Source: a virus
Taxonomy: Duplodnaviria; Caudoviricetes
Strand: one strand, 5' to 3'
IMG/VR virus record: IMGVR_UViG_3300020576_003495
Span: 114,171-178,170 of that record
DNA length: 64,000 bases
Below the pieces are notes generated by a model that saw only the letters and a list, made by a program, of their open reading frames with translations, did no database searches and was not told the origin of the DNA. The position numbers and the translations under genes are program-made. Below, one piece after another: positions 6,771 to 20,984 of the stretch. The first letter of the stretch is position 1, and the number at the start of each line of letters is the position of its first letter.

Positions 6771-7247
6771 ATGAGTTATATATTTGTACCCGCCCCTGAG
6801 AATTACCCCGGAACGATCTACCAGTACGGTAATAGAATTTTAGAACACCATTTAGTGTGGTGGTTGTCTACGGGGTTACTTGTTCCAGATGGTTACGTTT
6901 TGCACCATAAAGACGAAGACCCAACTAACAATGAATTTAGTAACTTGGAGTTGATGCTTGAGGGTGACCATATCCGCCACCACAACACACAGCACACCAT
7001 TGCTAGATTTGTATGCCGTAGGTGCGGAAATACGTTTGACCGAAATACCAGAGTTATTTCTGATGGGTCAAAACATATCTATTGCTCAAAAAGGTGTTCA
7101 GCGCTCAGCACATCAGGAAGATGCCGCCTTAGCGAAGATATGAAGGAAAAAGTGCGGTTGCTTAGAATTTCTGGTGGGTCGACTAGAAGTATTTCCAGAG
7201 AGTTAGGTATTAGTCGCAACACTGTGATGAAGTATTGGGGGATATAG
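6771..7247 (+). CDS. HNH homing endonuclease with Zn finger and C-terminal HTH
   Basis: LHHKDEDPTNNEFSNL; SISRELGISRNTV. Confidence 0.9.
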   Translation: MSYIFVPAPENYPGTIYQYGNRILEHHLVWWLSTGLLVPDGYVLHHKDEDPTNNEFSNLELMLEGDHIRHHNTQHTIARFVCRRCGNTFDRNTRVISDGSKHIYCSKRCSALSTSGRCRLSEDMKEKVRLLRISGGSTRSISRELGISRNTVMKYWGI

Positions 7248-7308
7248 ATGGGCTAAACAACTGATTTGCAATCAGTTAGGGACGGATCGTTACCGTCATT
7301 CTCCACCA
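7237..7308 (+). tRNA. tRNA-Ala(TGC), atypical D and T loops
   Basis: G3:U70; ACTGA-TTTGCAA-TCAGT; ACCA; overlaps the HNH stop. Confidence 0.75.
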
Positions 7309-7408
7309 AGTTTCAAGCTAGACGGCAAGATTGAGCTACGGGTGCTCTCTTGTTCGTGACAAGCCAGTAAGGCTCCCCAAAAGAGATAGCTGGTCGCTTT
7401 TTTACAAT

Positions 7409-7492
7409 GCGAGTGTGGCGTAATTGGTAGCCGCAGCGGTTTTAGAAGCCGCCGTTAATTCGTGGTGGGTTCGACTCCCCCCACTCGCACCA
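7409..7492 (+). tRNA. tRNA-Leu(TAG)
   Basis: GCGGT-TTTAGAA-GCCGC; ACCA. Confidence 0.9.
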
Positions 7493-7500
7493 AGTTTTAT

Positions 7501-7578
7501 CTACCTGTCGCCTAGTCTGGTATGGCCCCTGATTTGGGATCAGGCATAACCTCAGTTCAAATCTGAGCAGGTAGACCA
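7501..7578 (+). tRNA. tRNA-Pro(TGG)
   Basis: CCTGA-TTTGGGA-TCAGG; ACCA. Confidence 0.92.
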
Positions 7579-7659
7579 GAATACTCCGTCATTGCGACTT
7601 GCACAGCAGCAGTGCCGGGAAAGGCAGTGTGCAAGCTGCCTGAGAGTTTTATTAGATTT

Positions 7660-7735
7660 GCCCCCTAAGCACATGTGGACGTGTGTCAGTCTCCAAAACT
7701 GAAGGTAGGCGGTTCGAGGCCGTCAGGGGGTGCCA
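7660..7735 (+). tRNA. tRNA-Trp(CCA)
   Basis: TCAGT-CTCCAAA-ACTGA; GCCA. Confidence 0.9.
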
Positions 7736-7758
7736 ATGAAAGTAATTGCAAATACCCA

Positions 7759-7787
7759 TTGACAAATCGGGGGAGCTTTTATATAAT
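7759..7787 (+). promoter_or_regulatory. consensus sigma70 promoter
   Basis: TTGACA-17 nt-TATAAT directly upstream of the ncRNA at 7799. Confidence 0.9.
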
Positions 7788-7798
7788 TAGTAAAACAC

Positions 7799-8141
7799 TG
7801 TTAGATGCGTGTTTTTGGAGGTGGGCTTAGAAGCAGCCATCCTTAATGAGTAGGGCAAGTGCTGTATGCGGATACACATAGGCTGAGAAGGGCATCATTC
7901 AGGCCGAAAAGTTCAATAGGGTTTTGTGTGGATTCTTAGGGAGGCTGGCGTTAGGCCAGATAGCCGAAAGACGAAGCAAAATCACGCCAAGGCAGCTTCG
8001 CAAACTGCTGAAGGAATGGGAGTAGCACTCCCTGAGAACGAATGGGCGTACAGGGCCACACAGCTAGTATCAAGGGGAAGTTGCCGGTAATCCCCACGAT
8101 CCCTTTTGGCGTGACAGCACACCAAGAATACGCATCTAACA
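7799..8141 (+). ncRNA. ~340-nt structured RNA containing a split 23S rRNA L11-binding (H43/H44) mimic, copy 1
   Basis: 20-bp closing stem; GGCTTAGAAGCAGCCATCC ... GCGTGACAGCACAC; paralogue at 11582. Confidence 0.8.
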
Positions 8142-8157
8142 CTGTTGTAAAAAGTTT

Positions 8158-8196
8158 GGCGAGGAGGTTGTTGGTTACCAGACAGGCTCATAACCT
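8158..8196 (+). pseudogene. 5' remnant of tRNA-Met(CAT)
   Basis: GGCGAGG...CAGG-CTCATAA-CCT, then interrupted. Confidence 0.7.
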
Positions 8197-8235
8197 TTTT
8201 CGCTAGTTGTGTTATGATACCCGTGGGGGTATGCA

Positions 8236-8688
8236 ATGACACACTTACTATGTTGCAGTTGTAAAGAAAGCAAGCCTTTAGCTAGCTTTTCCAAAGACAA
8301 GAGTTCAAAGCGTGGGTACGCTAGTAAATGTAAAGACTGCCATAATACCTACGTGCGTACTGTGTGGTACCCAAAGAACAAGGATAAGCAGGTAGCGTCT
8401 GTTGCTCGTTTTAAAACAGCCAACAGACTGAAAGAAATCGCTTGGCGGCACGGTGTTCCGTTAGCGGATGTAGAAGAAGCAATAGAGCGCAGTTCTGGGG
8501 CTTGTGAAAGCTGCGGTTCCACTGTCTCTGTTGTGCTAGACCACTGCCACACCACGTCTAAAGTTAGAGGCGTCTTGTGCATGCGTTGTAATACAGTTTT
8601 AGGTAGGCTAGGGGATTCTTACGAGAGTGTTAAACAGCACATGGAGAGTTTGCTGGCCTATTTGGAAAAAAGTTTCGCGGGTGAGTGA
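8236..8688 (+). CDS. endonuclease VII-like HNH endonuclease
   Basis: CESC..LDHCHTTSKVRGVLCMRCN. Confidence 0.9.
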   Translation: MTHLLCCSCKESKPLASFSKDKSSKRGYASKCKDCHNTYVRTVWYPKNKDKQVASVARFKTANRLKEIAWRHGVPLADVEEAIERSSGACESCGSTVSVVLDHCHTTSKVRGVLCMRCNTVLGRLGDSYESVKQHMESLLAYLEKSFAGE

Positions 8689-8753
8689 AACGTCTTACAC
8701 AATGGGTTCATATCCCATTAACAGCAGGGTTAGACTCCCTGTACCCGCAACCA
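8676..8753 (+). tRNA. initiator tRNA-fMet(CAT)
   Basis: C1:A72 mismatch; ATGGG-TTCATAT-CCCAT; ACCA; overlaps the endonuclease stop. Confidence 0.85.
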
Positions 8754-8755
8754 GT

Positions 8756-8882
8756 TTCTGTGGCGTAAATAACGATTTCCTCAATGCCAATGAAGTAACG
8801 TGGGTTCGAATCCCATCGGCTCGTAAGGGCTGTCGTCTAGTGGTTAGGACACTAAAAATTTCGTTGTTGCTTGTTCCCAGAA
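8756..8882 (+). ncRNA. YrlA-type Y RNA with permuted tRNA-like domain
   Basis: Closing stem CTGTGGCGTA/GCTTGTTCCCAG; T arm GTGGGTTCGAATCCCAT precedes D arm GTCTAGTGGTTAGGAC. Confidence 0.75.
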
Positions 8883-8894
8883 TTAAACAAAGGC

Positions 8895-9130
8895 CAGAAG
8901 CCTAAGTAGTTCCCCGAGCATACGGTAAACGTGGGGTTCCCTTGAACAGACTGTTCTTCAACTTCTGTTCGGGGGGATCATGCGACAGTTTTACGGTGTG
9001 TGCTTTCGTGCCGGTTCTACTAGAATCAAAATTTTATCAAAGCATAGAACCTTGGTGGGGGCTAGGAAAGCCTCAAAATCACTAAAGGTCAGCAGTTGTA
9101 TTTACAGAATTACGTGGGGGCTTGTTCCTG
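8895..9130 (+). ncRNA. large RNA closed by a Y-RNA-like stem
   Basis: Ends GGCTTGTTCCTG pairing with CAGAAGCC; long internal hairpins. Confidence 0.45.
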
Positions 9131-9162
9131 TGTTCATAGAAGGATCACCCCAGTAGCAGATT

Positions 9163-9228
9163 TGCGTGGTGTATGGTTACCGTTACTTCTATCTTAGTGA
9201 AATCACACGGTTACCGCTTGTTCCCGCA
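9163..9228 (+). ncRNA. minimal Y-RNA-like hairpin
   Basis: TGCGTGGTGTA...GCTTGTTCCCGCA. Confidence 0.6.
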
Positions 9229-9237
9229 TTTATTTAT

Positions 9238-9314
9238 TGCTTGTTAGCTCAGTCCGGCAGAGCATTGTCTTGATAAGGCACAGGTCGTCGGTTCAAATCC
9301 GACACAAGCAACCA
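9238..9314 (+). tRNA. tRNA-Ile(GAT)
   Basis: TGTC-TTGATAA-GGCA; ACCA. Confidence 0.92.
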
Positions 9315-9319
9315 AGTTT

Positions 9320-9380
9320 CGGTGGTGTTGGTTAGTCGTTCTTCTTTCGGTGAAAAATCCGACTAGCTGTTTGTTCCCCG
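9320..9380 (+). ncRNA. minimal Y-RNA-like hairpin
   Basis: CGGTGGTGTT...GTTTGTTCCCCG. Confidence 0.55.
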
Positions 9381-9441
9381 ATTAATTTCCCCAGTCTTAG
9401 TGGCGGGATGGTCTTAGGTATTTATACCCACAGGAGTCAAC

Positions 9442-9942
9442 ATGTCCCCCGAACAGAAACAAGCCACATCCGAAGGTATTGAGAATGCTTTAGCTAGCGT
9501 ACCCCCCGAGATTGTTGATGAAGCCCTACGCTTCTGGTATGCCTACGCAAAACTCCATTATCGTTTTACATCGGCACAAGTCCTCGTTTCTTTCCTTGCT
9601 CGCAAGGGCACAACACCCGGAAATGGCAAGGGTTGGCGGGATTGTTGGGGGTCGATTTGCGTGAAAGCCAAAAAGCAAGGCATCATGCAAAAAGTGGGGA
9701 TCATGGTCACCACTGAGAAGCATACCCACATGGGTCACGGTGCGTACTGGCAGTCCAAGGTTTATGAAGGTGGGGATGAGCAGTATCGAAACAGCCCCGA
9801 GCAGGATTTGAAGCGTGCGCTGTACATGCGCTGGCTCAAGAAGGATTATGAGAATCTGCGTGACTACACGGATGACGTGTTTTCGATGGGGGTCAAGTTT
9901 GCCCTTGAGAACAAAGAGTACGTTGCGGGGATAAAAATTTAA
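9442..9942 (+). CDS. hypothetical protein
   Basis: AGGAG RBS, 166 aa. Confidence 0.75.
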   Translation: MSPEQKQATSEGIENALASVPPEIVDEALRFWYAYAKLHYRFTSAQVLVSFLARKGTTPGNGKGWRDCWGSICVKAKKQGIMQKVGIMVTTEKHTHMGHGAYWQSKVYEGGDEQYRNSPEQDLKRALYMRWLKKDYENLRDYTDDVFSMGVKFALENKEYVAGIKI

Positions 9943-9978
9943 CTGTGTGTGCTAACGTACAGACAGGTAGTTTCAACT

Positions 9979-10053
9979 GTGTCCCTGACAGAGAGGCCGA
10001 TGTGCAGGATTGCAAACCCTGATAGCCCGGTTCAATTCCGGGGGGACACTCCA
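9979..10053 (+). tRNA. tRNA-Cys(GCA)
   Basis: CAGG.-TTGCAAA-.CCTG; U73; CCA. Confidence 0.92.
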
Positions 10054-10211
10054 AGTTACGTAGCATCACGGAAGGAACGTGCGTGGCCCACGAGGTCGAT
10101 GGGGTACGGTCAGTTTTCATGTGGGGGTCGACGCCCTAACATGCAAAGCTTAATGCTGTGCTGACAAGAAGGTGAGCAGGGCGCAACCCTGTAAGACCTT
10201 CCTACGTATTT

Positions 10212-10289
10212 GCGCTCTGAGCTAGTCTGGTGATTCAGCGACAGTTTGAAGAACTGTAGAACTAGGTTCGATTCCTAGAGGGTGCACCA
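10212..10289 (+). tRNA. tRNA-Phe(GAA)
   Basis: ACAGT-TTGAAGA-ACTGT; ACCA. Confidence 0.9.
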
Positions 10290-10308
10290 AGATTACTGTA
10301 TAGTCGAG

Positions 10309-10383
10309 TGGGGTGATATGCAATGGATGCATACTTGGCTTTGAACCAAGGTTAGTCAGGTTCGATTCCTACCACCCCTTCCA
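10309..10383 (+). tRNA. tRNA-Gln(TTG)
   Basis: CTTGG-CTTTGAA-CCAAG; CCA. Confidence 0.85.
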
Positions 10384-10389
10384 GTTTTT

Positions 10390-10473
10390 AGAGAGATGAG
10401 CTTTGGAAGCAAACTATCTTGGAAAGGTAGTCCATCCGAAAGGGTGACAGTTCGATTCTGTATCTCTCTGCCA
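10390..10473 (+). tRNA. tRNA-Ser(GGA)
   Basis: CTATC-TTGGAAA-GGTAG; long V arm; GCCA. Confidence 0.88.
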
Positions 10474-10481
10474 TGTTTTAA

Positions 10482-10569
10482 GGTTAGGTGCGCGAGTGGC
10501 TAAAGCGTCTTGTTTGCTAAACAATGAGTCCGAAAGGGCACTAGGGTTCGAACCCCTACCTAACCGCCA
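10482..10569 (+). tRNA. tRNA-Ser(GCT)
   Basis: TTGT-TTGCTAA-ACAA; long V arm; GCCA. Confidence 0.9.
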
Positions 10570-10575
10570 TGTTAC

Positions 10576-10652
10576 GCCGGGTTGACGGAATTGGCATACG
10601 TGCAAGTTTCAAAAACTTGATCTTGCGGGTTCGACTCCCGCACCCGGCACCA
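10576..10652 (+). tRNA. tRNA-Leu(CAA), short variable region
   Basis: CAAGT-TTCAAAA-ACTTG; ACCA. Confidence 0.88.
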
Positions 10653-10658
10653 AGTTTT

Positions 10659-10735
10659 GCCCTTGTGGTGGAATAGGCATACACACGCGCTTGAGGGGTG
10701 CGGTTCTGTCGGTTCGAGTCCGACCAAGGGTACCA
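10659..10735 (+). tRNA. tRNA-Leu(GAG), short variable region
   Basis: CGCGC-TTGAGGG-GTGCG; ACCA. Confidence 0.88.
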
Positions 10736-10741
10736 GTCTAT

Positions 10742-10812
10742 GCCCTCACTATCGAATAGCATCAGGTTTCCTAAACCAGATTGTGACAGTTAAACTCTGT
10801 CTGAGGGCACCA
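10742..10812 (+). tRNA. tRNA-Arg(CCT), non-canonical
   Basis: GCCCTCA/TGAGGGC; loop TTCCTAA; tiny D arm; ACCA. Confidence 0.75.
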
Positions 10813-10813
10813 T

Positions 10814-10884
10814 ACCCCGACTGTGGGACAGATTTTGGCCTTCTAAGCCAAAAATGGGAGGTTCGAAACCTTCTCGGGGTGCCA
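10814..10884 (+). tRNA. tRNA-Arg(TCT), non-canonical
   Basis: ACCCCGA/TCGGGGT; loop CTTCTAA; tiny D arm; GCCA. Confidence 0.8.
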
Positions 10885-10890
10885 AGTTTT

Positions 10891-10964
10891 GCGGATGTAG
10901 CTTAGTGATAAAGCGCTTGTTTGCCAAGCAAGATACGCGAGTTTGATTCTCGTCTTCCGCTCCA
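10891..10964 (+). tRNA. tRNA-Gly(GCC)
   Basis: CTTGT-TTGCCAA-GCAAG; TCCA. Confidence 0.92.
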
Positions 10965-10970
10965 AGTTTC

Positions 10971-11045
10971 GCCCTTGTAGCACAGTGGCAGTGCACTCGC
11001 TTGGTAAGCGAGAGGTCGTGGGTTCGATTCCGACCAAGGGCACCA
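10971..11045 (+). tRNA. tRNA-Thr(GGT)
   Basis: CTCGC-TTGGTAA-GCGAG; ACCA. Confidence 0.92.
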
Positions 11046-11051
11046 AGTTTC

Positions 11052-11126
11052 GCCCTTTTAGCGCAGTGATAGAGCAATCGTTTCGTAAGCGATAGGTCGT
11101 CTGTTTGATTCAGACAAGGGGCACCA
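11052..11126 (+). tRNA. tRNA-Thr(CGT)
   Basis: ATCGT-TTCGTAA-GCGAT; ACCA. Confidence 0.9.
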
Positions 11127-11136
11127 GAGTTTTAAT

Positions 11137-11213
11137 GGGACGTTAGCTCAGTCGGTAGTAGCACTCGCCTCTTAAGCGATAGGTCGTCAGTTCGATCCTG
11201 ACACGTCCTACCA
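11137..11213 (+). tRNA. tRNA-Lys(CTT)
   Basis: TCGC-CTCTTAA-GCGA; ACCA. Confidence 0.92.
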
Positions 11214-11275
11214 TCACATACTCCTTGACAAACTGTGGGGATTGGATTATCATTACTCCATAGTCAATCAACGGA

Positions 11276-11575
11276 GTGATGATCATGTGGAATATAGTAA
11301 TCGAAGGTAGTCAGGAAGTGTACGTTCGCCATAATAATGAAATCGTGGCCCGGTTCAAGTACGCATCCCCCAAGGCCAGTGCCAAGCATTTTGTGAAGTT
11401 TCTGAAGGCGAACTACAGCCCCGAAGAATACTTTGCCAAGCGCAAGTTGGGCATCCCGCCTTTGCGTATCCTTCATCAAAAGGGGTACGTCAGCTACAAC
11501 GTTGAACGTGCCGACAAGGAAGCTATTGCGGGGGCTAAGAAGGTTTGGGCGATGTATGATCGTCTGAGTTTTTAA
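11276..11575 (+). CDS. hypothetical protein
   Basis: Promoter at 11225 and AACGGAGTG RBS. Confidence 0.75.
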   Translation: MMIMWNIVIEGSQEVYVRHNNEIVARFKYASPKASAKHFVKFLKANYSPEEYFAKRKLGIPPLRILHQKGYVSYNVERADKEAIAGAKKVWAMYDRLSF

Positions 11576-11581
11576 AGTTTC

Positions 11582-11917
11582 GGTGTTCGTAGAGGGTGGG
11601 CTTAGAAGCAGCCATCCCTTAAAGAGTAGGACAAGTGCTGTATGCAGGTACACATAGGCAGTTTAAGGGCATAGTTAACTGGCCGAAAAGTTCAATAGGG
11701 TTTGTGTGGATTCTTAGAACGGCTTGGGGTCTGGACTCCAAGTACCAATCGAAAGACGAAGCAAATCACGCCAAGGCAGTCTCGCAAACTGCTGAAGGAA
11801 TGGGGGTTGCACCCACTGAGAGCGAATGGCATACAGAGCCACACGGCAAGTATCAATGGAAGGCAGAGATGCTAAATCCAACGATTCCTTTTAGCGTAGT
11901 AGCACACTACGAACACC
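11582..11917 (+). ncRNA. ~340-nt RNA with split 23S rRNA L11-binding mimic, copy 2
   Basis: Closing stem GGTGTTCGTAG/CTACGAACACC; same conserved blocks as 7799..8141. Confidence 0.8.
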
Positions 11918-11976
11918 ACCCATTTTTAGGAGATTTATCATGCGTTCAGAAGAAAGTGACAAACGCCCCGAATAAT

Positions 11977-12051
11977 GGGCGTGTAATTCAATTGGGAGAA
12001 TCACCGGCTTTTACCCGGTTTACCAGAGTTCAAATCTCTGCGCGCCTACCA
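11977..12051 (+). tRNA. tRNA-Lys(TTT)
   Basis: ACCGG-CTTTTAC-CCGGT; ACCA. Confidence 0.88.
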
Positions 12052-12069
12052 GTTGCAAGTAATTTCAAT

Positions 12070-12103
12070 GGTGATTGAAGAGCAAATTGGCCGCGCCAGC
12101 AGC
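12070..12103 (+). pseudogene. 5' remnant of a tRNA-His-like gene
   Basis: GGTGATTG AAGAGCAAA..CGCGCCA resembles the adjacent His D arm. Confidence 0.5.
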
Positions 12104-12115
12104 CATAGTTTCAAT

Positions 12116-12204
12116 GGAGTCGTAAGAGCAAAGAGGACGCGCCACACGGCTGTGAACCGTGTCTCGAAAGAGGTTAGTGGGTTCAAGCCCCACACGACTC
12201 CCCA
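12116..12204 (+). tRNA. tRNA-His(GTG) with extra variable arm
   Basis: G-1:C73; CACGG-CTGTGAA-CCGTG; CTC-GAAA-GAG arm. Confidence 0.88.
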
Positions 12205-12326
12205 ACTGCATCAAAGGCTTTAACGGAAGCTACTAATTAGCGCACGGGTGTTCCAGTTTTTCTTGTAGTCGTAGCTGTAACGGTAAAAAGTCTCGTATGA
12301 TTAAGCTATGCGAGGCGGGTAACAAT

Positions 12327-12403
12327 GCTGGTGTCGTCTAATGGACTAGGACATTTGACCTTCAATCAAAGCAATGTGGGTTCGACTCCCATCGCCAGCG
12401 CCA
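12327..12403 (+). tRNA. tRNA-Glu(TTC) with C33
   Basis: TTTGA-CCTTCAA-TCAAA; GCCA. Confidence 0.85.
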
Positions 12404-12439
12404 TTACTTAGTAAGAAATCTTTGTTGACCGATACCGTT

Positions 12440-12476
12440 CAAGGTGAGGCGGGTTTGACTCCCGTACCGGATACCA
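12440..12476 (+). pseudogene. 3' tRNA remnant
   Basis: GCGGG-TTTGACT-CCCGT ACCGGAT ACCA with no matching 5' strand nearby. Confidence 0.55.
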
Positions 12477-12544
12477 AGTTTCAATTCCGCAGAATCCAAG
12501 CAAGGTGCAAGGACTTGTCGGAAAGTGGGTGCAAAAAGATCAAT

Positions 12545-12633
12545 TCCCCGGTACTCTAATGGTAAGAGGCGATACTGTTAATATCGTGTAGTCGGCCTAG
12601 CGCCGTATAGAAGTTCGAGTCTTCTCTGGGGAG
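12545..12633 (+). tRNA. tRNA-Asn(GTT) with long variable arm, no encoded CCA
   Basis: TCCCCGG/CTGGGGA; CGATA-CTGTTAA-TATCG. Confidence 0.82.
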
Positions 12634-12638
12634 CACGT

Positions 12639-13046
12639 ATGAAGAATGGTGAGTATACTTTAGTCATAGCGCCTGAAGGGTATCCGGGCAAGAGGTACCG
12701 TGGTCGCTACTGCTATGAACATCATTTGGTTTGGTGGTTGAATACAGGTGAAGTCGTACTTGCTGGCGAGTTGATTCACCACAAAGATGAGGACAAGCGC
12801 AATAACGTTTTCCTTAACCTTGAGAAAATGTCAAAGACTTCTCATGATGCACACCACAGTAACCTACCGATTAAGTCGCCTGTTCTGGTGTCTCTTTTTT
12901 GTTTTTGGTGCGGTTCTGCTTTCACCTTGAGGAAGCATGTTTACGTGTGCAGGGTTAGAGCTAACGGGCATGCTGATGTGTGTTGTGGAAGGTCGTGCCA
13001 AGTCAAGAAGCAGCAGCATGACAAAAAAGTTAAAAAGGAAAATTAA
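12639..13046 (+). CDS. HNH homing endonuclease, paralogue of 6771..7247
   Basis: APEGYPG...EHHLVWW...IHHKDEDKRNN. Confidence 0.9.
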   Translation: MKNGEYTLVIAPEGYPGKRYRGRYCYEHHLVWWLNTGEVVLAGELIHHKDEDKRNNVFLNLEKMSKTSHDAHHSNLPIKSPVLVSLFCFWCGSAFTLRKHVYVCRVRANGHADVCCGRSCQVKKQQHDKKVKKEN

Positions 13047-13120
13047 GCTATCAGGGTATAGCCTCTGCCTCGAAAACAGAAGGTTCCGAAAGGGATGAGT
13101 TTCGATTACTCAATTTTCCA
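13037..13120 (+). tRNA. tRNA-Ser(CGA), 3' end incomplete
   Basis: GGAAAAT/ATTTTCC; loop CTCGAAA; V arm TCC-GAAA-GGG; overlaps the HNH stop. Confidence 0.7.
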
Positions 13121-13171
13121 CACTAAAACTGTTCGACTTCTGCTAAAATATTATTTTTGTGGAGTCGAACC

Positions 13172-13696
13172 ATGCGGATAAGTAAAAAACAAATAGCTAG
13201 GTTTTGGTCTAACGTGCAGAAAACAGATAGCTGTTGGCTTTGGTTGCGGCAACCAAATAATAAAGGCTACGGTAAGGTAACTATAAGGCCGAATAGTCAA
13301 GAGCGTGTAATGCTATTGGCACACAGGCTAGCTTGGCTTCTAGTTAAAGGTGAAATACCAGATGGGTTATTTGTCCTACACAAGTGCGATACTCCCTTGT
13401 GTTGCAATCCCGAACACTTATTCCTTGGAACTCAACAAGATAACATGGGTGATATGTGGGCTAAGGGGCGCAGTCGACTGCATGAGTTCAGGCACTTGGG
13501 GACGATTGCTGCACATACTGAAGTGGCTACGCAAAAGCGGAAAGATACGTTTATTGCCATTGAACACCAGAAGGGTAAGCGCAACTCGCAGTTTGGGTCT
13601 TTTTGGATTACCGATGGTAAAGTTAATAAGAAGTGGCGTTCTGAGTTGGGCTGTATCCCCTCTGGTTTTTTTAAAGGACGTAGTAAATTTTTTTAA
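13172..13696 (+). CDS. HNH homing endonuclease
   Basis: FWSNV..CWLW..GYG..AHR..VLHKCDTPLCCNPEHL. Confidence 0.92.
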   Translation: MRISKKQIARFWSNVQKTDSCWLWLRQPNNKGYGKVTIRPNSQERVMLLAHRLAWLLVKGEIPDGLFVLHKCDTPLCCNPEHLFLGTQQDNMGDMWAKGRSRLHEFRHLGTIAAHTEVATQKRKDTFIAIEHQKGKRNSQFGSFWITDGKVNKKWRSELGCIPSGFFKGRSKFF

Positions 13697-13851: not shown

Positions 13852-14274
13852 ATGAATAACTTTGCAAAGATTCTTAAAGGTGGGCCGGGTTCGGGTCGTC
13901 ATGCGGGAGCCTATTCACCCGCTCAAAGAAAAAAAATTGAAGAAAGATCACACATGCTCTTGCGTAATAGTCGTTTAAATGGGGGGGGTAAGCAGTCACA
14001 CACACCCGTAGTTGTTCCAATTTATCACAATAAAGACGCTAAAGACTCGGAACTGAATAGGAATGCCTATCAGATGCTAGTTGATAAAGGTCTAGTTAAG
14101 CATGTAAGCAGTGTAGATCACGTTAGAGAGCCGTGGACGTCTAAATTCACCCCCGAGCCTACTAAGTATAGGCAGCATGATCACACGTTGTTAACAGGGG
14201 AGTTAACAGATGCGGGTAAAGCACACCCAGCGGCTAGTTTGGCTGTTAATTCTAACGGTGAGTTTACTACTTAA
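13852..14274 (+). CDS. hypothetical protein with FAKILK-GGPGSG N-terminal motif
   Basis: Motif shared with 23000..23341. Confidence 0.75.
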   Translation: MNNFAKILKGGPGSGRHAGAYSPAQRKKIEERSHMLLRNSRLNGGGKQSHTPVVVPIYHNKDAKDSELNRNAYQMLVDKGLVKHVSSVDHVREPWTSKFTPEPTKYRQHDHTLLTGELTDAGKAHPAASLAVNSNGEFTT

Positions 14275-14286
14275 AGCCGCGTCCCC

Positions 14287-15111
14287 ATGTTTTCACATAT
14301 CCTTAAGTTCAACCACAACCATGGGGTTGATGGAAAGTTTTCATCGTCCAACGGTTCGGCGTCTGTTCAATCTACCGCCCCTGTAGGCATTCAATTTGTC
14401 TCCCCCAATGTGCGTGAAGGCACGGACATTAACTACGCCATGCGGCGTTCAGGCGGCACGTTACAGCGCCATTTCCGCAAAGACTTCCAAGCCGTTGACA
14501 ATCTTTTGGGGACGCAAGGCGCTCAAGAAGATGCAATAGGCGCATGGTCGGACGGTGGTGAGAATTCAATCGCACAATTTAGTGCTAACGACCTTCCATT
14601 AGAAAAGCTGAATGTTTCAGCCGCGATGAAAGGCTATTTAGCAGAACAGAAAGCCGTAGTTTCCTTTAAAACAGGAAAAGGCAACCAGAAGATGCATACG
14701 TTTGATGCGAACATTTCTGACCCTGTGTTGCTGAGCAAGGAACTGGTAGAGCAAGGACTCCCATTTCATACATTGCTCCCCCATGCAGGACATGAAGGAT
14801 TTCAGGTGATTGTGTTTAGCGACAACGCATCATCGAAAGAAGGTAAGGCGCTGTCCCTGAATGTAACCAAAGCGGCTAAGTCTTTCGGCAGCAAGCACAC
14901 CTATATGAAGGGTAGCGGGGGCTTCATTGGGAGTTGGGATACCCGTGAAGCAGGAAGAACAGAGTACAATAAAGTCATTGATCCCTATATTGCCAAGCAC
15001 CCGGAGTTGAAAGCCGGTTGGGACGCCATGGTGAAAAAGATGAAGCACCGTGTCACAAAGTTCATCAACATATTATTTAAGAAGGCTTTTACAGGAGTAT
15101 CCTATGCCTAA
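14287..15111 (+). CDS. hypothetical protein with ILK-FNHNH..GKF N-terminal motif
   Basis: 274-aa ORF. Confidence 0.75.
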   Translation: MFSHILKFNHNHGVDGKFSSSNGSASVQSTAPVGIQFVSPNVREGTDINYAMRRSGGTLQRHFRKDFQAVDNLLGTQGAQEDAIGAWSDGGENSIAQFSANDLPLEKLNVSAAMKGYLAEQKAVVSFKTGKGNQKMHTFDANISDPVLLSKELVEQGLPFHTLLPHAGHEGFQVIVFSDNASSKEGKALSLNVTKAAKSFGSKHTYMKGSGGFIGSWDTREAGRTEYNKVIDPYIAKHPELKAGWDAMVKKMKHRVTKFINILFKKAFTGVSYA

Positions 15112-15322
15112 GATAAATTTACCTGAGTTTCCCCCCTTAGACTCGAAACATTATCCCTCTGATGAAGCCATCTCTGCGGAGCTAAAAAGACGTAGAGCGT
15201 TGATTGACGCAGCATGGCCTGATGATCTTGAAGTGTCCGACGACGAACTGCATGAATTGGGTTACGCTGTAGAAAAGACCGGGGACAACAAGGGTCTTAA
15301 CGTGATCTTGGGGCGCGGTTAG
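15104..15322 (+). CDS. small acidic protein coupled to 14287..15111
   Basis: AGGAG RBS; start overlaps the end of the upstream gene. Confidence 0.7.
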   Translation: MPKINLPEFPPLDSKHYPSDEAISAELKRRRALIDAAWPDDLEVSDDELHELGYAVEKTGDNKGLNVILGRG

Positions 15323-15346
15323 TCTGCACGGTTGATTGGAGTTGCT

Positions 15347-16963
15347 ATGTTTGCTGCCCTACTAAGAAATGATATATCTTATGTCCTTAAAGGGGATGTG
15401 GTAGGCCACCCTTTCCGTGGAAACCAATATGGAAAAGGCGTATCCCAAGGCCAAGACTATACCGACAGTAAGGGCCGTGCACATATTGGTGATTTAGACC
15501 CAACACAGCGCAGAGCAGAGTCGGCGTTTTATGGTGCTATTGAAAAAGATTTGCCGTCGCTGATCAAAGCCTATCAGGAAAAGAACGGGCACACGATTGA
15601 CGCGGATAAGGTAAAAGAACTATCCCCCGATTTCCTGTCGAACCCTTCTTTGTTTGCTGCTGCCGTGCATGAGCCTAGTTCGTTGCTCTCCAAGGTGTTG
15701 TTTAGTACAGAACTGGATGCTAAGGCCAAAGCAGGGGATACTAGCCCCACGATACTGACCGCAGGTGGCAGTGGGTCGGGCAAGAGCGAAGCCATGCCGA
15801 TTGTGCTAAAGGCCATCAACGCTAAAAAGGGTGGTTTGGTTTTTGATTCTGTCTTGGGTAACTTTGGTTCAGCCAAGAGCAAGATTGATGAAGCCTTGGT
15901 TAAAACTAAAGGTGATGTGGTGATTGCCTACACCAACAGAAAACTTGAGGACGCTTTCCGTTCAAACGCTAAACGTGCACGCACAGTTTTGACGAAGACG
16001 TTGGTTGGTGCACATGTCGGTGCTTCTAATAATATTAGAAAGCTGGCAGAACACTACGCTGGAAATCCTCGTGTGAAAATCCACGTGGTCAATAATTTTG
16101 GGGGTGTCGAGGATATTCACCAAGGAAAATTGGAGGATGTTCCCACATACGGTTCAGATACAACCGATAAACTGCATGCAATTGCTGATACAATGCATGC
16201 CAACAAGGAAATTAGTGATGAAATCTACGCCCACATTACAAAAGGACGATCCGTTCAGAAAAGCTGCGCTCGAATTCTCAAAGAAACATCCGGGAAAAAC
16301 TTTGGACGATATTGCTTTGGAACAGGAGAAGGAATCCGATGCCAGAGCAGCGGAACACCTGAAGAATCCGAAGGTGCAAGCGGCGTTCGGAAAGGCGAGT
16401 CCGCAGGGCACCCCTTCCGGGGAAACCAATACACCAGCAAAGACATTGGAACAGGTGGTGGAACAAATCAATCAGGAGCTAGCGGAGACAGTTCCCTTCC
16501 ACTTCGGGCAGACGGGAAAGTAGAGCTAACGCACTGGTCGAATGCGGCTAATTTGAGCAGCATTGATCCTTCGCACTACGGTCACGGCTATGCGGGGGCT
16601 GAAAAAGCACGTAAGGACTCTGACCCTGATGATTGGGTCGACAGGAGTTACTACGGCATTGGTGTAGGCCAGCCGGGGGGCTATGAAAAAGAAGAAGGCT
16701 TGGGTAGTCACAAGTACATCAGTGGTGTTGATCCCAAGTCGCTCTACGATATTGTCAAAGACCCCGATGGGCTGAATCCCAAAGGCACGCTGGATAGCTG
16801 GACAAACCAGATGAGCCTGTATGAGAAAAACATCAAGGGCAAAGGGTATACAGGATACTGGTTGAAGCACCCGAGTCTAGGGATGGTTGCAGCGGTGTTC
16901 AAGCCCCTTGTCCCTGAGCAGTACATTGCCCCCGTACAGAAGTTCGCTAAGTTCTTCAGATAA
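15347..16963 (+). CDS. two-module protein: zeta-toxin-like P-loop kinase plus unknown domain
   Basis: Walker A AGGSGSGKS, LVFDSVL, RARTV; GHPFRGNQY repeated twice. Confidence 0.75.
   Translation: MFAALLRNDISYVLKGDVVGHPFRGNQYGKGVSQGQDYTDSKGRAHIGDLDPTQRRAESAFYGAIEKDLPSLIKAYQEKNGHTIDADKVKELSPDFLSNPSLFAAAVHEPSSLLSKVLFSTELDAKAKAGDTSPTILTAGGSGSGKSEAMPIVLKAINAKKGGLVFDSVLGNFGSAKSKIDEALVKTKGDVVIAYTNRKLEDAFRSNAKRARTVLTKTLVGAHVGASNNIRKLAEHYAGNPRVKIHVVNNFGGVEDIHQGKLEDVPTYGSDTTDKLHAIADTMHANKEISDEIYAHITKGRSVQKSCARILKETSGKNFGRYCFGTGEGIRCQSSGTPEESEGASGVRKGESAGHPFRGNQYTSKDIGTGGGTNQSGASGDSSLPLRADGKVELTHWSNAANLSSIDPSHYGHGYAGAEKARKDSDPDDWVDRSYYGIGVGQPGGYEKEEGLGSHKYISGVDPKSLYDIVKDPDGLNPKGTLDSWTNQMSLYEKNIKGKGYTGYWLKHPSLGMVAAVFKPLVPEQYIAPVQKFAKFFR
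16218..16523 (+). CDS. nested out-of-frame ORF, possible partner/antitoxin
   Basis: AAGGA upstream of ATG; helical protein-like composition. Confidence 0.45.
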   Translation: MKSTPTLQKDDPFRKAALEFSKKHPGKTLDDIALEQEKESDARAAEHLKNPKVQAAFGKASPQGTPSGETNTPAKTLEQVVEQINQELAETVPFHFGQTGK

Positions 16964-16968
16964 GTTTT

Positions 16969-16993
16969 GCCGGTTTCGCATAGTGGGATTGCC
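16969..16993 (+). pseudogene. 5' half of a split tRNA (Thr-like)
   Basis: GCCGGTT pairs with AACCGGC-ACCA at 17719-17729. Confidence 0.7.
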
Positions 16994-17064
16994 CTTACTA
17001 GCTTAGTGGCATTGCACTAAATCTTTTCTCCGTGTATACTGTTGGCTTTTGCGGAGACTAGCCG

Positions 17065-17607
17065 ATGAAAGGGATACCACTAACATACCCTTATAATGAT
17101 TGTGTGGGTTACATTCAACACAGTAAGGACGGCAGGGCGTATTTGTACCTATACAACCCAACAACTAAAAGAAGGCGTCTAATAGCTTACGCTAGGTATT
17201 TATTGTCTGTGGAGTTGGGGCGCTTTTTGCTGCCAGAAGAACAAGTTGACCACATAGACGATAACCCGCTTAACGATGCGTTGTCTAATCTACAGGTTCT
17301 CTCTGTGGATGACCACAAGAAAAAGACAGCTAAGAGTGCTGCCAGCAAAATAGAGTGGGTAGAGTTTTCTTGCCCTACATGCGGTGTTAAATTTAAACGC
17401 ACTAGGCGAATTGTTAACCAGAGTATGAAGTCTTATGGTGATAGTTGGGCTCCAAGCTGTTCGATAAGCTGCGCTACGGCACGCACTAAAGGTACATCTG
17501 ACGACACTAAGCTTAAAATAAAACAGCTTAGGCTTTTGGGGCAGTCTGGTTATGAAATAGCCAGTGCTCTAGGCGTTAGCAGGAACACGGTAATGAAGTA
17601 TTGGTAA
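17065..17607 (+). CDS. HNH homing endonuclease with C-terminal HTH
   Basis: VDHIDDNPLNDALSNLQ; C-terminus RNTVMKYW identical to 6771..7247. Confidence 0.9.
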   Translation: MKGIPLTYPYNDCVGYIQHSKDGRAYLYLYNPTTKRRRLIAYARYLLSVELGRFLLPEEQVDHIDDNPLNDALSNLQVLSVDDHKKKTAKSAASKIEWVEFSCPTCGVKFKRTRRIVNQSMKSYGDSWAPSCSISCATARTKGTSDDTKLKIKQLRLLGQSGYEIASALGVSRNTVMKYW

Positions 17608-17611
17608 TTTT

Positions 17612-17687
17612 GCTTTCGTGCCTCAATTGGTACAGGACAACTCTTGTAAGGTTGCATTTGTCGGTTCGAGTCCGACCGAAAGCTCCA
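17612..17687 (+). tRNA. tRNA-Thr(TGT)
   Basis: CAACT-CTTGTAA-GGTTG; CCA. Confidence 0.9.
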
Positions 17688-17729
17688 AGAACGCAGCTTG
17701 AGTGTGTTCGATTCACACAACCGGCACCA
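17688..17729 (+). pseudogene. 3' half of the split tRNA
   Basis: GTGTG-TTCGATT-CACAC AACCGGC ACCA. Confidence 0.7.
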
Positions 17730-17795
17730 AAATAATGCTTGACAAAACTGTTGCATAGAGTAGAATCACTTCCACTTATAACGGAGTGATTAAAT

Positions 17796-18080
17796 ATGAA
17801 TACTATTAAACAGGAGGATACCCCCGCCCGTCGACGTTACACCATTCAAACCGTGTATTACTTGCGGGATAAGGTAGTCCGTACCAATCATGCGGCACAC
17901 GCCAACAATGCCGTGCAGAACTGCGTAGGACACATGCAACTCAATCGCTATGCCGCCATGAGGGCGGAAGTGTTTGACAGCGCCAGCGGCGTGCTGCATG
18001 CGGTTATTACCCGTAGTATTGTTGGGCACATCGGTATCGTGTTCAAGCGTGAAGTGAAGGAGCACTACAATGGCGGATAA
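17796..18080 (+). CDS. hypothetical protein
   Basis: Promoter at 17739, AACGGAGTG RBS. Confidence 0.75.
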   Translation: MNTIKQEDTPARRRYTIQTVYYLRDKVVRTNHAAHANNAVQNCVGHMQLNRYAAMRAEVFDSASGVLHAVITRSIVGHIGIVFKREVKEHYNGG

Positions 18081-18489
18081 AATCTCTAGGCATGAGCAGT
18101 TGGTGCGTGCGGCTAAAGGGCGAGCCATTATCACGTCTTACTTGAATACCAAGACAGAACCCGTTCCCCGTGGGAAAATATTGGAAGACTGTGGAGACAG
18201 ACTGGCCGAGTTGGATTATACCGAATCGAGTCTGGACAACTTTCTGTACACCATGGGTAACAGCGGTTTGTTGACCAAGAAGCCCGACCCTACCGGAAAA
18301 TTATATCTGTGGAGTACCATGCCCAGCGATGGGGGCAAAGTGCCGTTGCGAAAGGCACCATCGAGTAAGGTCAAGGATAAACAGGACAAAGCTAGTCCAG
18401 CAGCGATTACACTGGACATTATCAAGTCGTCGGGGCGTGTTCGGTTGACGATCAACGGTCTGGTGATCGAAGTCGGTGTGATTGAGTAA
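18070..18489 (+). CDS. winged-helix-like protein
   Basis: GGAG RBS; LYTMGNSGLLTK...LYLW. Confidence 0.6.
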   Translation: MADKISRHEQLVRAAKGRAIITSYLNTKTEPVPRGKILEDCGDRLAELDYTESSLDNFLYTMGNSGLLTKKPDPTGKLYLWSTMPSDGGKVPLRKAPSSKVKDKQDKASPAAITLDIIKSSGRVRLTINGLVIEVGVIE

Positions 18490-18540
18490 GCACCCACCAA
18501 AAAACTCTTGACAAACGTAGATGGTTGCAGTAGACTGTAG

Positions 18541-18815
18541 TTGTGTTTCGGAGAATCGTTAGAGTGAAACACGGTATGGAAGACAGGACGCGCATTCCGG
18601 CATCAAAAAGCGCCTGAGTTACCCGAATCGAGTAGGGTTGGCCTCTGAAAAGAGTAAGTCCAGTAAGGGTGTTAGTAAGGGAACGGTGACGCGGATCGGT
18701 GTAGCGTAGGTGCCTTCGGGCCGAGAGTGGCAAAGTATGAGCCAGCAGACCATGTAGCCGACAACGAGCCTGACACAAAGCCGCGAGTAGTGTAGACGAC
18801 GATTCTCCAAAACAA
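18541..18815 (+). ncRNA. ~275-nt promoter-driven closed-stem RNA
   Basis: Promoter at 18508; GGAGAATCGTT/GACGATTCTCC closing stem. Confidence 0.6.
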
Positions 18816-19521
18816 TTGAAATTACTTGCAACGGAGTGTTAAGTGAAAAAGAGAAGCGCAAAACGAAATGTCTGGGGTAACGTGGTTGGTTACGAGGGTG
18901 GTCGTCGCGCCGAAGAATTTGGTCACGCTGATTACGCTGATCTTTGGGCTGAGTTGTGGGTTAGCGGGATGAGCAGAGAAGAAGCAGAGTGCAGGGCGCT
19001 TGATTCACGCACTCGTGAGCCTGTTCATGGTGTTGGGCATATGCAAGGTCGGGGTGCCGCATGACCGTACCTTTCAAGCAAGATACGTTTTACCGATGTT
19101 ATGATGAGGGTTGGGGGGAGAAGGGTGTTTATGATCACGAACTATCCTTTGACCAAGCGTATCAGCACATAGTCGATGCGTCTGGAAAAGATGTTGCTGA
19201 CATGTGGGTAAAGTATGAAGACCCGATGTTCGAGTACGGTATGTTTGGACACACTCGCATGGTTGCTTCGCTTTGGTTTGATCCTGATGATTGGGAAGGG
19301 TCTGATGACTGGTAATACTGATAGGGGGGTGGCTAATGAAAGCTGAATACAGGAAGTTGAACGACAGAACACAGAACAGCAGCACTTACCACAAGAAGGA
19401 TGGCACTGCTGTTCGGGCCAAGCTTAACGCTGAAACCCGCAAGGAAGAACTGGCAAGGCAAGCACAAAACCCTATGCCTGTTCATGGTTTTTGGTAGGCT
19501 ATTAGTTTGGCGGTTAACATT

Positions 19522-19684
19522 GCAAGGGTAGTTCAGTCCGGTAGAACCATCGCTCTGGATATATTGAAACGGAAACAGCTAAGGAAAACAAGTAAGGCTG
19601 ATACCTGCCACACTGCACCCGAAAAGTGCAACACTGTGGCCTCAAGTGAGTGTAATCGCAGGTTCGAATCCTGCCCCTTGCACC
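19522..19684 (+). ncRNA. tRNA-like RNA with ~90-nt insertion in the anticodon arm
   Basis: Perfect acceptor GCAAGGG/CCCTTGC, canonical D and T arms. Confidence 0.75.
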
Positions 19685-20132
19685 TAACGGATATTTATGA
19701 AACTGACTGACGAATTAAAAAACAAGATTGACAGCATGAGCTACATTGACATGCTAGCCCAGTGGCGGTTTTACCCAATTGGCTACGAACTGTTTCAGGA
19801 TGAATCGGGTGAGTATTTCTCAAACAGGCTGTTTGCTTTGCGGGATGCTTATCCAGATGCCGCTGTGGCCGCAAGCAAATCAATAGGGTGGGATCAATGA
19901 AAGCCGCTATCGTTATTGATTCATGGAAGTACGAGATTTTTGATCGCAACCTTCGTCAGTTTGGTTATGCTTATGAAGAAGCCCCAAGCCTGACTAAGAC
20001 TACACGGACGCTTCTGGTTAAGACCGACAATCTTGAAGCCTTGGCTGAAGTCGTGAAGAAATCAAACATCGAAGCGGCTAAGACAAAAAAGGCTTGACAA
20101 ATGTTTTAACCTGCTGTATCATACTTTTCTTT

Positions 20133-20214
20133 GAAAACCTTTTCGTAGTCCAGTGGCAAGATATGTGACATACCAGACACGACGGCGGGTTCGATTCCCC
20201 CCGAAAAGGTTTTC
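20133..20214 (+). ncRNA. tRNA-like RNA with 13-bp acceptor stem
   Basis: GAAAACCTTTTCG/CGAAAAGGTTTTC, D and T arms; promoter at 20094. Confidence 0.65.
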
Positions 20215-20443
20215 CGTAGCACTAGGGTACTTTTTGATCGACAGTTTTTAGTAACGCACTGGTAGACGATTCTACCGTTAAGCCCTCGGAACTAGGTGGC
20301 ACTAGGGGCGGTGCTGCCACTACCGAAAACTGCCGTTCAAAGAGTATTTAGGCGGGGCATATTCGTTACAGGGCGTTTGAAGTCCCGTAGGGCGCGGGTC
20401 TAGTTCTGTAGGGGAGTCTGGATAGCCCCGCCTAAGTATTTTT

Positions 20444-20528
20444 GCGGGTGTGGTACAAAGGTGTGCACTTGCCTTCCAAGCAAGCAGTCGAAAGACGTAT
20501 GAGAGTTCGAGTCTCTTCACCCGCTCCA
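20444..20528 (+). tRNA. tRNA-Gly(TCC) with extra variable arm
   Basis: CTTGC-CTTCCAA-GCAAG; GTC-GAAA-GAC arm; TCCA. Confidence 0.88.
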
Positions 20529-20628
20529 AGTTTTAGTCAGTGCAGTGCATCGGAACGGTTCGGGTTCTGGTTGGCAGCAAGGTCGTGTCATGGTCGAAAC
20601 AGTTGATGCGGTACTGCACTTACTAAAG

Positions 20629-20984
20629 TCAGGTCTGTATTGAGGTTGTCACAGGTTCCATACCCCTATGGCTGGAAATCCGGCAACGGTAGAGCAGACT
20701 TGATAATTGCTGTAATTCTACTTGACGGTAAGCGTTTCGGACGCGGGGGCAGAACCCGCCGCCTCCACCAAACAGGGTCTTGCAAAGGGCTTTGCTTAAT
20801 GGGGGCGACACAGTTTCGACGGGGCGTGGATAAGATGGTGGCAGCAGGATAGGTGACTGCCCTAAGCAGCGCAAAACTTTAACTGCAAACGACTCGCAGT
20901 ATCGTGTAGCGGCTTAGCCGTTACGGAGTTTGCCCACCAAACCTACTTTGTAGGGGGCTTGGCAACAGAAAGTGGGCAGTACTT
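20629..20984 (+). ncRNA. ssrA: circularly permuted (two-piece) tmRNA
   Basis: CGCCTCCACCA ends at 20770, before GGGGGCG..TTTCGAC at 20801; G3:U70; tag ANDSQYRVAA* at 20885-20917; outer boundaries approximate. Confidence 0.9.

Follow-up and report, generated by a model that had tools for sequence, protein, structure and literature searches.

The virus record IMGVR_UViG_3300020576_003495 of IMG/VR (178,170 bp; 48% G+C) closes with a stretch of 64 kb (positions 114,171 to 178,170), hereafter the window, which contains between 5.5 and 24 kb an array of tRNA genes, all on the plus strand, among which nuclease genes are dispersed. About 30 tRNA genes are called there by ARAGORN, several extra ones were recovered with Rfam and a scan of our own, and a two-piece alpha-type transfer-messenger RNA (tmRNA) also lies inside the array. 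Four of the nuclease genes overlap the neighbouring RNA gene: an HNH gene (HNH1), an endonuclease-VII-like gene and a shorter HNH gene (HNH3) end inside the tRNA that follows on the same strand, and a GIY-YIG gene on the minus strand ends inside the tmRNA. The nuclease genes of the genome were collected by profile searches (Pfam, PHROG) and paralogue searches (phmmer). Their open reading frames (ORFs) are free-standing, being located between tRNA genes or tRNA fragments, and an Rfam scan of 5000-24000 found no intron family. Positions are those of the window unless marked as genome positions.

HNH1 (6771..7247, plus strand) encodes a 158-residue protein of the HNH–helix-turn-helix (HTH) homing-endonuclease type, with matches to Pfam HNH_3 (4.5e-9), to HTH families in its C-terminus and to the HNH families of PHROG; the His-Me finger motif HHKDED...NN...NL...H..HH is seen in the alignment of its paralogues and homologues. 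It is followed by tRNA-Ala(UGC) (7237..7308, plus strand), called by ARAGORN, in which G3:U70, A73 and an encoded CCA can be read. The final 11 nt of HNH1, which ends in ...K-Y-W-G-I-TAG, are the first 11 nt of this tRNA, and the stop occupies tRNA positions 9-11, so that the W-G-I-stop ending described in the first-pass annotation agrees with the coordinates of both genes. In the HNH-HTH family, the terminus reads ...SRNTVMKYW plus at most one residue, as aligned for HNH5, a second paralogue of this genome and the homologues L001 and L003. HNH1 keeps RNTVMKYW, to which G-I-stop is added from tRNA-Ala.

Similarly, the endonuclease-VII-like (His-Me finger) gene (8236..8688, plus strand; 150 residues), which matches Pfam Endonuclease_7 (4e-15) and PHROG 2633 (8.6e-28, over profile positions 15-138 of 142), ends in F-A-G-E-TGA inside tRNA-Met(CAU) (8676..8753, plus strand; 8677-8749 according to ARAGORN). 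The overlap measures 13 nt from the initiator start at 8676, or 12 nt from the ARAGORN start. The hallmarks of a bacterial initiator tRNA are that positions 1 and 72 do not pair and that the anticodon stem ends in a run of three G:C pairs. Read from 8676, the gene has a C1xA72 mismatch, three such G:C pairs (GGG/CCC) and A73-CCA, and in an alignment its acceptor bases 2-7 and 66-71 are identical to those of the annotated tRNA-fMet of phage T5. It is therefore of the initiator type, which bears out the label fMet that it had been given together with the overlap.

In the third case, HNH3 (12639..13046, plus strand; 135 residues), assigned by Pfam HNH_3 (2.4e-7), by phmmer similarity to HNH1 (2.4e-23) and by alignment, ends in K-E-N-TAA 10 nt into tRNA-Ser(CGA) (13037..13121, plus strand; ARAGORN), a tRNA whose variable arm is long and whose CCA is not encoded. 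As had been read before, the stop lies inside the tRNA, where it is formed by U8-A9-A10 (positions 8-10). In the alignment, HNH3 is without the C-terminal HTH of its paralogues, and it looks truncated because this whole domain is missing and the stop falls inside tRNA-Ser. The tRNA-Asn upstream of HNH3 contributes from its 3' acceptor strand a Shine-Dalgarno-like GGAG, which would serve as ribosome-binding site, and consequently both the start signal and the stop of HNH3 lie within tRNA genes. This tRNA-Asn, called as tRNA-Asn(GUU) within 12545-12638, is 90 nt long; its variable region measures 22 nt, and it does not encode CCA.

The fourth overlap is of a different kind. The GIY-YIG homing-endonuclease-type gene (20943..21542, minus strand; likely start ATG 21491) was recognised by its YVY...YIG motif and by PHROG 314 ('homing endonuclease', 8e-9), and the translation of 20943-21542 contains YVYQCTNRETQEFYIGV, in keeping with the N-terminal GIY-(10-11 residues)-YIG motif by which the family is recognised; no Pfam match was obtained at 0.01. 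It converges on the permuted tmRNA (20663..21008, plus strand; tag ANDSQYRVAA), which scores 134.7 bits with Rfam tmRNA_permuted (threshold 47) and 95.1 bits with alpha_tmRNA (threshold 50), is also called by ARAGORN, and has G3:U70 in its acceptor pairing. The limits of the tmRNA differ between programs (20663-20980 with alpha_tmRNA, 20678-21008 with ARAGORN) and its 3' boundary is uncertain, so that the overlap amounts to 38 nt with the former limits and 66 nt with the latter. That the end of the nuclease gene runs antisense through the tmRNA 3' end, as first proposed, thus stands, while the length claimed for it, about 14 codons, becomes 12-21 codons plus the stop. A homologue, L121, shares the C-terminal zinc-finger module and ends one residue past its last Cys. 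The gene of the window continues past the end of the zinc finger for 10 extra codons and a stop (PLSVAKPPTK, 20943-20975), antisense to the tmRNA 3' region. None of the IMG/VR relatives of this gene adjoins tRNAs or a tmRNA; they are uninformative about the overlap.

All four overlaps are present in the sequence. In each of the three tRNAs, the 5' end is fixed by a seven-pair acceptor stem whose 3' strand leads into A73 and, for two of them, into an encoded CCA, and no alternative boundary takes away any overlap. ARAGORN and Rfam disagree by 1 nt at two of the tRNA starts and by 28 nt at the tmRNA end, which could suggest that features were mis-called, with ORFs or tRNA boundaries wrong and the overlap unreal. 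This explanation is barely credible against boundaries pinned in this way and four ORFs whose significant nuclease-family matches all reach near their C-termini. The same holds for chance coincidence: six of the ten nuclease genes of the genome have their ends in the 23-nt interval from -13 to +9 nt around the start of a tRNA on the same strand, for which a rough hand estimate gives about 0.045 (4-5%) per ORF end, even within a dense array of 18.5 kb, and the layout is non-random. In all four genes, the functional part of the protein extends as far as the border of the RNA gene, and the stop is provided by the neighbour, together with 2-10 run-on codons.

Most of the remaining nuclease genes adjoin a tRNA or a tRNA fragment without overlapping. 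HNH4 (13157..13696, plus strand; Pfam HNH_3 1.6e-15 and zf-His_Me_endon), of a different HNH subfamily, has its stop 5 nt before tRNA-Ser(UGA) (13702-13789), and HNH5 (17065..17607, plus strand), an HNH-HTH paralogue of HNH1 identified by PHROG 14913 (4e-33) and phmmer, ends in ...MKYW-TAA, 4 nt before tRNA-Thr(UGU) (17612-17687); its match to Pfam HNH_3 (3.8e-5, 23.7 bits) is slightly below the cut-off of 24.8. HNH0 (5716..6138, plus strand; PHROG 2255 1.8e-31) begins 18 nt after tRNA-Tyr and is followed, 5 nt downstream, by an orphan tRNA 3' half at 6144-6172 found in a T-arm scan. An overlap of HNH0 with a complete tRNA ending at 6172 was considered and rejected, with 4/7 acceptor pairs, a fold z-score of -0.6 and no ARAGORN call at a relaxed threshold over 6096-6172. 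In total, the genome holds ten nuclease genes, nine of which adjoin a tRNA, a tRNA fragment or the tmRNA. Six have their stops between -13 and +9 nt from the start of a same-strand tRNA (-13 or -12, -11, -10, +4, +5 and +9), two more have an orphan tRNA 3' half directly after them, one abuts the tmRNA, and only the gene at 48900-49280 sits elsewhere.

This arrangement is shared by relatives of the HNH-HTH clade, the closest of which in IMG/VR all lie within tRNA arrays, with stop-to-tRNA gaps of -24, -22, -21, -10, -10, +1, +4, +8, +39 and +217 nt. HNH genes of IMG/VR that are more distantly related have no tRNA nearby. An apparent 22-nt overlap in L007 was set aside as decayed: there, a truncated HNH frame is open through one entire tRNA and stops in the next. 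When the junctions of the present genome, the IMG/VR relatives and the cultured-phage records are brought together, 23 nuclease-tRNA junctions are obtained, of which around half overlap (-10 to -24 nt) and most others have gaps of +1 to +9 nt. As to the occurrence of the overlap in other phage tRNA arrays, a question raised at the outset, it is found again in IMG/VR relatives and in the Escherichia coli phages T5 and Bas91. Since the gaps vary among the 23 junctions, the overlap represents one end of a continuum and no fixed trait of one nuclease lineage.

In all the collected cases the overlap stops fall into two zones, tRNA positions 8-14, often the conserved U8-A9-G10/A10, and positions 19-24, corresponding to the D-loop TAG, and none of the 23 junctions ends at positions 1-7. 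The tRNAs of the window use U8-A9-A10 itself in tRNA-Ser(CGA), and a stop one to three positions later in tRNA-Ala and tRNA-Met. A stop triplet at positions 8-10 is present in 10 of the 31 tRNAs called by ARAGORN in the phage.

A different view of the junctions would treat the overlapped tRNAs as genes in decay or already dead, into whose non-functional sequence the nuclease ORFs have merely been extended with no consequence. Their Rfam scores are indeed low (24.8 bits for Ala, 34.7 for Met and 33.5 for Ser(CGA), against an array median of about 50), which places the three among the lowest-scoring of the approximately 34 tRNAs of the array (rank estimate, p ~0.02) and leaves tRNA-Ala under the RF00005 gathering score of 29 bits, which the other two pass, and their D arms and T loops are non-canonical. 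However, all three acceptor stems are fully paired (7 bp in tRNA-Ala), and the isotype hallmarks, namely G3:U70, A73 and CCA in Ala, and C1xA72 with the three G:C pairs in Met, have been kept; ARAGORN still draws a cloverleaf with G3:U70 for tRNA-Ala, and in its T loop (ATCGTTA) the 54:58 pair is preserved as A54:U58 through changes on both sides. Moreover, tRNA-Ala(UGC) is the sole Ala tRNA of the genome, in an otherwise near-complete set. The evidence from other phages points both ways. Of the overlapped tRNAs of T5, the record marks tRNA-Gln2 as a pseudogene and describes tRNA-Ser2 as not convertible to a suppressor, while Ser1 and Ser3 are convertible; yet the T5 tRNA-Asn, also overlapped, scores 55 bits, and among five overlapped tRNAs from further phage contigs, four are canonical with scores of 56-62 bits. 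Dead tRNAs are therefore a very unlikely explanation, and the overlapped tRNAs are probably functional.

Remnants of broken tRNA genes around the nuclease genes provide an indication of how these units reached the array. One such case is the unit formed by HNH5 and tRNA-Thr(UGU), which is enclosed by two tRNA halves whose acceptor strands pair perfectly. The 5' half, with acceptor strand GCCGGTT and a D arm, lies upstream of the unit (16969..16993, plus strand), and the 3' half, with T arm GTGTG-TTCGATT-CACAC at 17702, acceptor strand AACCGGC and ACCA, follows tRNA-Thr (17688..17731, plus strand); the former was read from the sequence and the latter from the sequence and a T-arm scan. Within the 2.5 kb searched, GCCGGTT at 16969 is the only perfect Watson-Crick complement of AACCGGC. 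By a narrow margin, the best similarity of the 3' half is to the genome's tRNA-Thr(CGU). Outside the window, a unit of tRNA-Leu(UAA) and an HNH gene is likewise enclosed by complementary Leu-like tRNA halves (genome 96921 and 97566). At genome 97597-97667 (L005 1598-1668), a tRNA 5' half followed by a perfect TTGACG-17-TATAAT promoter is found just upstream of an HNH gene. It thus seems that promoters come with the nuclease units themselves. A promoter and terminator scan gave, overall, results no better than shuffled sequence.

A third remnant precedes the endonuclease-VII-like gene, where the 5' two-thirds of a broken tRNA-Met (acceptor strand, D arm and CTCATAA loop) can be read at 8157..8205 on the plus strand; several Met tRNAs are among its best similarity matches, and ARAGORN called no full tRNA there, also when its threshold was relaxed. 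A T arm at 8800 was considered as the missing 3' part of this tRNA and discarded, as it belongs to a permuted tRNA-like module. Finally, an orphan tRNA 5' half, consisting of an acceptor strand and a D arm, was read just upstream of HNH1 (6727..6753, plus strand). Since complementary tRNA halves flank the Thr and Leu units and a tRNA-Met 5' part precedes the fMet unit, these remnants support the joint arrival of nuclease and tRNA in at least two or three units, with a weaker case for the Ala unit. Such arrival is in line with the known behaviour of free-standing homing endonucleases, which co-convert the DNA that flanks them.

The reading that best accommodates these observations, with a probability of roughly 0.72, is the compaction of nuclease-plus-tRNA units in which stop triplets belonging to the tRNA end the nuclease ORF. 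According to this model, free-standing homing-endonuclease-type genes (three HNH subfamilies, one endonuclease-VII-like and one GIY-YIG) would have colonised the tRNA/tmRNA array and settled flush with its RNA genes. Because only the nuclease domain and the tRNA would be under selection, the spacer would have been lost, and each nuclease would have lost its own stop codon or never required one. The frame would then run 2-10 codons past the conserved protein to a stop triplet inside the RNA gene, usually provided in tRNAs by U8-A9-G10/A10 or by the D-loop TAG at positions 19-24. A nuclease and the tRNA next to it would be inherited together and would probably also move together, as a compact whole inserted into resident tRNA genes or at their side. 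It had been claimed that the overlap locks the nuclease to its cargo. This claim is partly supported: joint units are backed by the broken tRNA halves, but the overlap itself is one end of a continuum from -24 to +9 nt in paralogues and relatives, and need not have been selected as such.

Several points weigh against this model. The remnant at 6727-6753 is most similar to Asn, Thr and Leu tRNAs and not to Ala, so that similarity matching failed to assign it to the Ala isotype, and a 3' remnant was found neither for the Ala unit nor for the Met unit. In IMG/VR, the relatives of the endonuclease-VII-like gene and of HNH4 are not adjacent to tRNAs, and consequently the tRNA linkage of these two genes is seen in the present genome only. 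Mobility is inferred from the remnants only, as no close relative of the phage was found that could provide a nuclease-free allele for comparison: a megablast search with 6700-13200 returned only tRNA-Ile matches in two Xanthomonas phages, and tblastn with proteins of 543 and 977 residues returned distant domain matches only. Furthermore, a frame entering one of the phage's own tRNAs meets a stop within 13 nt in 23% of tRNA-by-frame combinations, and all three overlaps do so (joint chance ~0.012). As this is more frequent than for random frames, some selection may act on the shortness of the overlap, or on its very presence.

RNase P cuts at tRNA position +1, and messages that lack a stop codon are substrates of tmRNA-SmpB (trans-translation). 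Since the overlapped tRNAs look functional, RNase P processing would be expected at the junctions, and its cut at the tRNA 5' end would, as a by-product of the compact layout, leave a nuclease message without a stop codon. Nuclease translation and tRNA maturation would compete for each transcript, and therefore nuclease output should stay low; such a reduction is a likely consequence of the layout. This effect would hardly differ from that at junctions where the stop is 4-9 nt upstream of the tRNA. The expression limiter put forward in the first-pass annotation, running from RNase P through a non-stop message to the tmRNA, is thus a sound deduction from established biology, for which the sequence bears only the permitting geometry. 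It cannot apply to the GIY-YIG/tmRNA pair, because that overlap is convergent and antisense, and the nuclease message is without an RNase P site. The core of the limiter is not new, having been proposed earlier for SegB and the T5 nucleases (PMC2330249), while its explicit tmRNA step appears to be an addition of the annotation. Literature searches on RNase P-made non-stop messages in phage arrays, and on a link between phage tmRNA and nucleases, returned nothing specific, and no paper stating the tmRNA step was found.

A stronger proposition is that the overlap is in itself a selected device, by which RNase P makes a non-stop nuclease mRNA, the product is tagged by the host or phage tmRNA and degraded, and a toxic nuclease is thereby capped. 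The chain would be built on the RNase P and tmRNA-SmpB biology described above, a near-identical limiter has been proposed for T4 SegB and the T5 nucleases (PMC2330249), and the overlaps are shorter than predicted from random frames. The layout also recurs independently across phage lineages and nuclease families, but within one family it is not conserved, as paralogues and orthologues of the same nuclease have their stops at -11, +1, +4, +9 and +39 nt. Moreover, a stop 4-5 nt upstream of the RNase P cut would leave an unprotected 3' end that is nearly equivalent, and the overlap would add little to it. The phage tmRNA bears a degradation-type ...VAA tail, but there is no SmpB in the phage and nothing that would link the tmRNA to the nucleases in particular; the loss of the DNA-binding domain from HNH3 resembles decay more than regulation, and the antisense GIY-YIG overlap is unable to work in this manner. 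A selected device is, on balance, unlikely. A shade less probable is the more extended proposal of a selected self-limiting circuit across phage arrays, in which each matured tRNA would destroy one nuclease message, trans-translation with the phage tmRNA would clear the product, nuclease would be kept at a trace level sufficient for homing, and the nuclease would be welded to a cleavage-resistant tRNA allele.

The overlaps of the window reveal no new kind of system, and their value lies in offering a clear, multi-family example of a little-discussed rule: a nuclease gene of a phage tRNA array has its end at the following tRNA or within it, on conserved stop triplets of that tRNA. Annotation pipelines that bar overlaps between coding sequences and tRNAs will drop or truncate such nuclease genes. 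The overlap, together with the broken tRNA halves, supports a turnover of phage tRNA sets by means of nuclease-plus-tRNA units. In addition, the layout offers a simple and testable coupling of tRNA maturation and nuclease expression, for which the E. coli phages T5 and Bas91 would be tractable models.

Other features of the array and of related contigs were recorded as well. The permuted tRNA-like module downstream of tRNA-Met (8783-8874) comprises a T arm (GTGGG-TTCGAAT-CCCAT), an acceptor-like hairpin with a GTAA loop and a D-arm-like 5' half (GGGCTGTCGTCTAGTGGTTAGGACAC); it scores 27.5 bits with Rfam YrlA (Y RNA-like), far under the gathering score of 69, and may be a phage Y-RNA-like gene. 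The element at 19522-19682, with an Rfam tRNA match of 40.4 bits over 161 nt and no ARAGORN call, has normal tRNA 5' and 3' parts and an insert of approximately 88 nt near the anticodon region. Two tRNA-sized genes, at 10742-10812 and 23438-23507, are missed by ARAGORN and Rfam alike; they hold perfect acceptor stems, T arms and ACCA/GCCA ends, with the apparent anticodons CCU and ACG (Arg). An 88-nt tRNA-like element at 12117-12204 (GAGTCGT...T arm...ACGACTC-CCCA) is called by no tool, and an orphan tRNA 3' half at 12449-12476 (T arm, ACCGGAT, ACCA) has no 5' partner within 2.5 kb. At 11940-11975, a mini-ORF of 11 codons (MRSEESDKRPE) is preceded by AGGAG, a good ribosome-binding site, and stops 1 nt short of tRNA-Lys(UUU), which starts at 11977. 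Among the related contigs, L022 (IMGVR_UViG_3300025589_000007) has an HNH gene that overlaps tRNA-Lys by 10 nt and, about 1.4 kb downstream of it in the same viral tRNA array, a bacterial class A RNase P RNA (4233-4583; 145.4 bits, gathering score 100).

Among known systems, the closest counterpart is found in coliphage T5 (AY543070), whose record annotates three nuclease genes that overlap the following tRNA: hegC (F-TflI), 14 nt into tRNA-Ser2 with a TAG stop at tRNA positions 12-14; hegD (F-TflII), 23 nt into tRNA-Gln2; and T5.069, 24 nt into tRNA-Asn. As in the window, these are free-standing nuclease genes of a phage tRNA cluster whose 3' ends lie inside the next same-strand tRNA, and three genes of the window show the T5 type of overlap in full, with the stop included in the 5' part of that tRNA. 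Like four of the window nucleases, hegC and hegD match Pfam HNH_3, and T5.069 carries a T5orf172/MUG113 domain, which belongs to the GIY-YIG clan. On the other hand, the similarity of the T5 proteins to the window nucleases is restricted to the HNH motif (BLASTP 3e-4, 46 residues), and no tmRNA is annotated in the stretch of the T5 record viewed.

In animal mitochondria, tRNA excision sets the 3' end of the upstream message and may leave an incomplete stop which, unlike at the junctions described here, is completed by polyadenylation. This tRNA punctuation (e.g., nonstop mRNAs, PMC9674279) is an analogy only and not a homologous system. A further known system is SegB of phage T4, a homing endonuclease encoded in a tRNA cluster, which cuts tRNA genes at a recognition site that includes the T-loop motif and drives the co-inheritance of adjoining tRNA genes, with both cleavage and homing shown experimentally (PMC2330249). 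In the same 2008 paper, the authors suggested that SegB expression is restrained because the segB message is cut at the stop codon when tRNA-Arg matures, and stated that limitation by tRNA processing had also been proposed for the T5 nucleases (PMC2330249). The segB stop is located 5 nt before tRNA-Arg, resembling HNH4 and HNH5, but the T4 record shows no true overlap, the family of the nuclease is unlike those of the three overlapping genes, and homing has been demonstrated for SegB while the window nucleases are known from their genes alone.

The HNH-HTH type itself is represented in cultured phages by homologues that share 31-38% identity with HNH5 along the greater part of its sequence and are located directly upstream of a tRNA, although their partner isotypes differ from those of the window, being Arg and Asn, and no neighbouring tmRNA is known for them. 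In E. coli phage LorandFenyves_Bas91 (PQ850614), the homologue overlaps tRNA-Arg(UCU) by 10 nt, with its stop at tRNA positions 8-10, while in Klebsiella phage RaK2 and E. coli phage Turkey5 it ends 9 and 7 nt before tRNA-Asn, respectively. With its annotated precedent in coliphage T5 and its recurrence among many further phages, the layout of the window is real but ordinary for nuclease genes packed in tRNA arrays.

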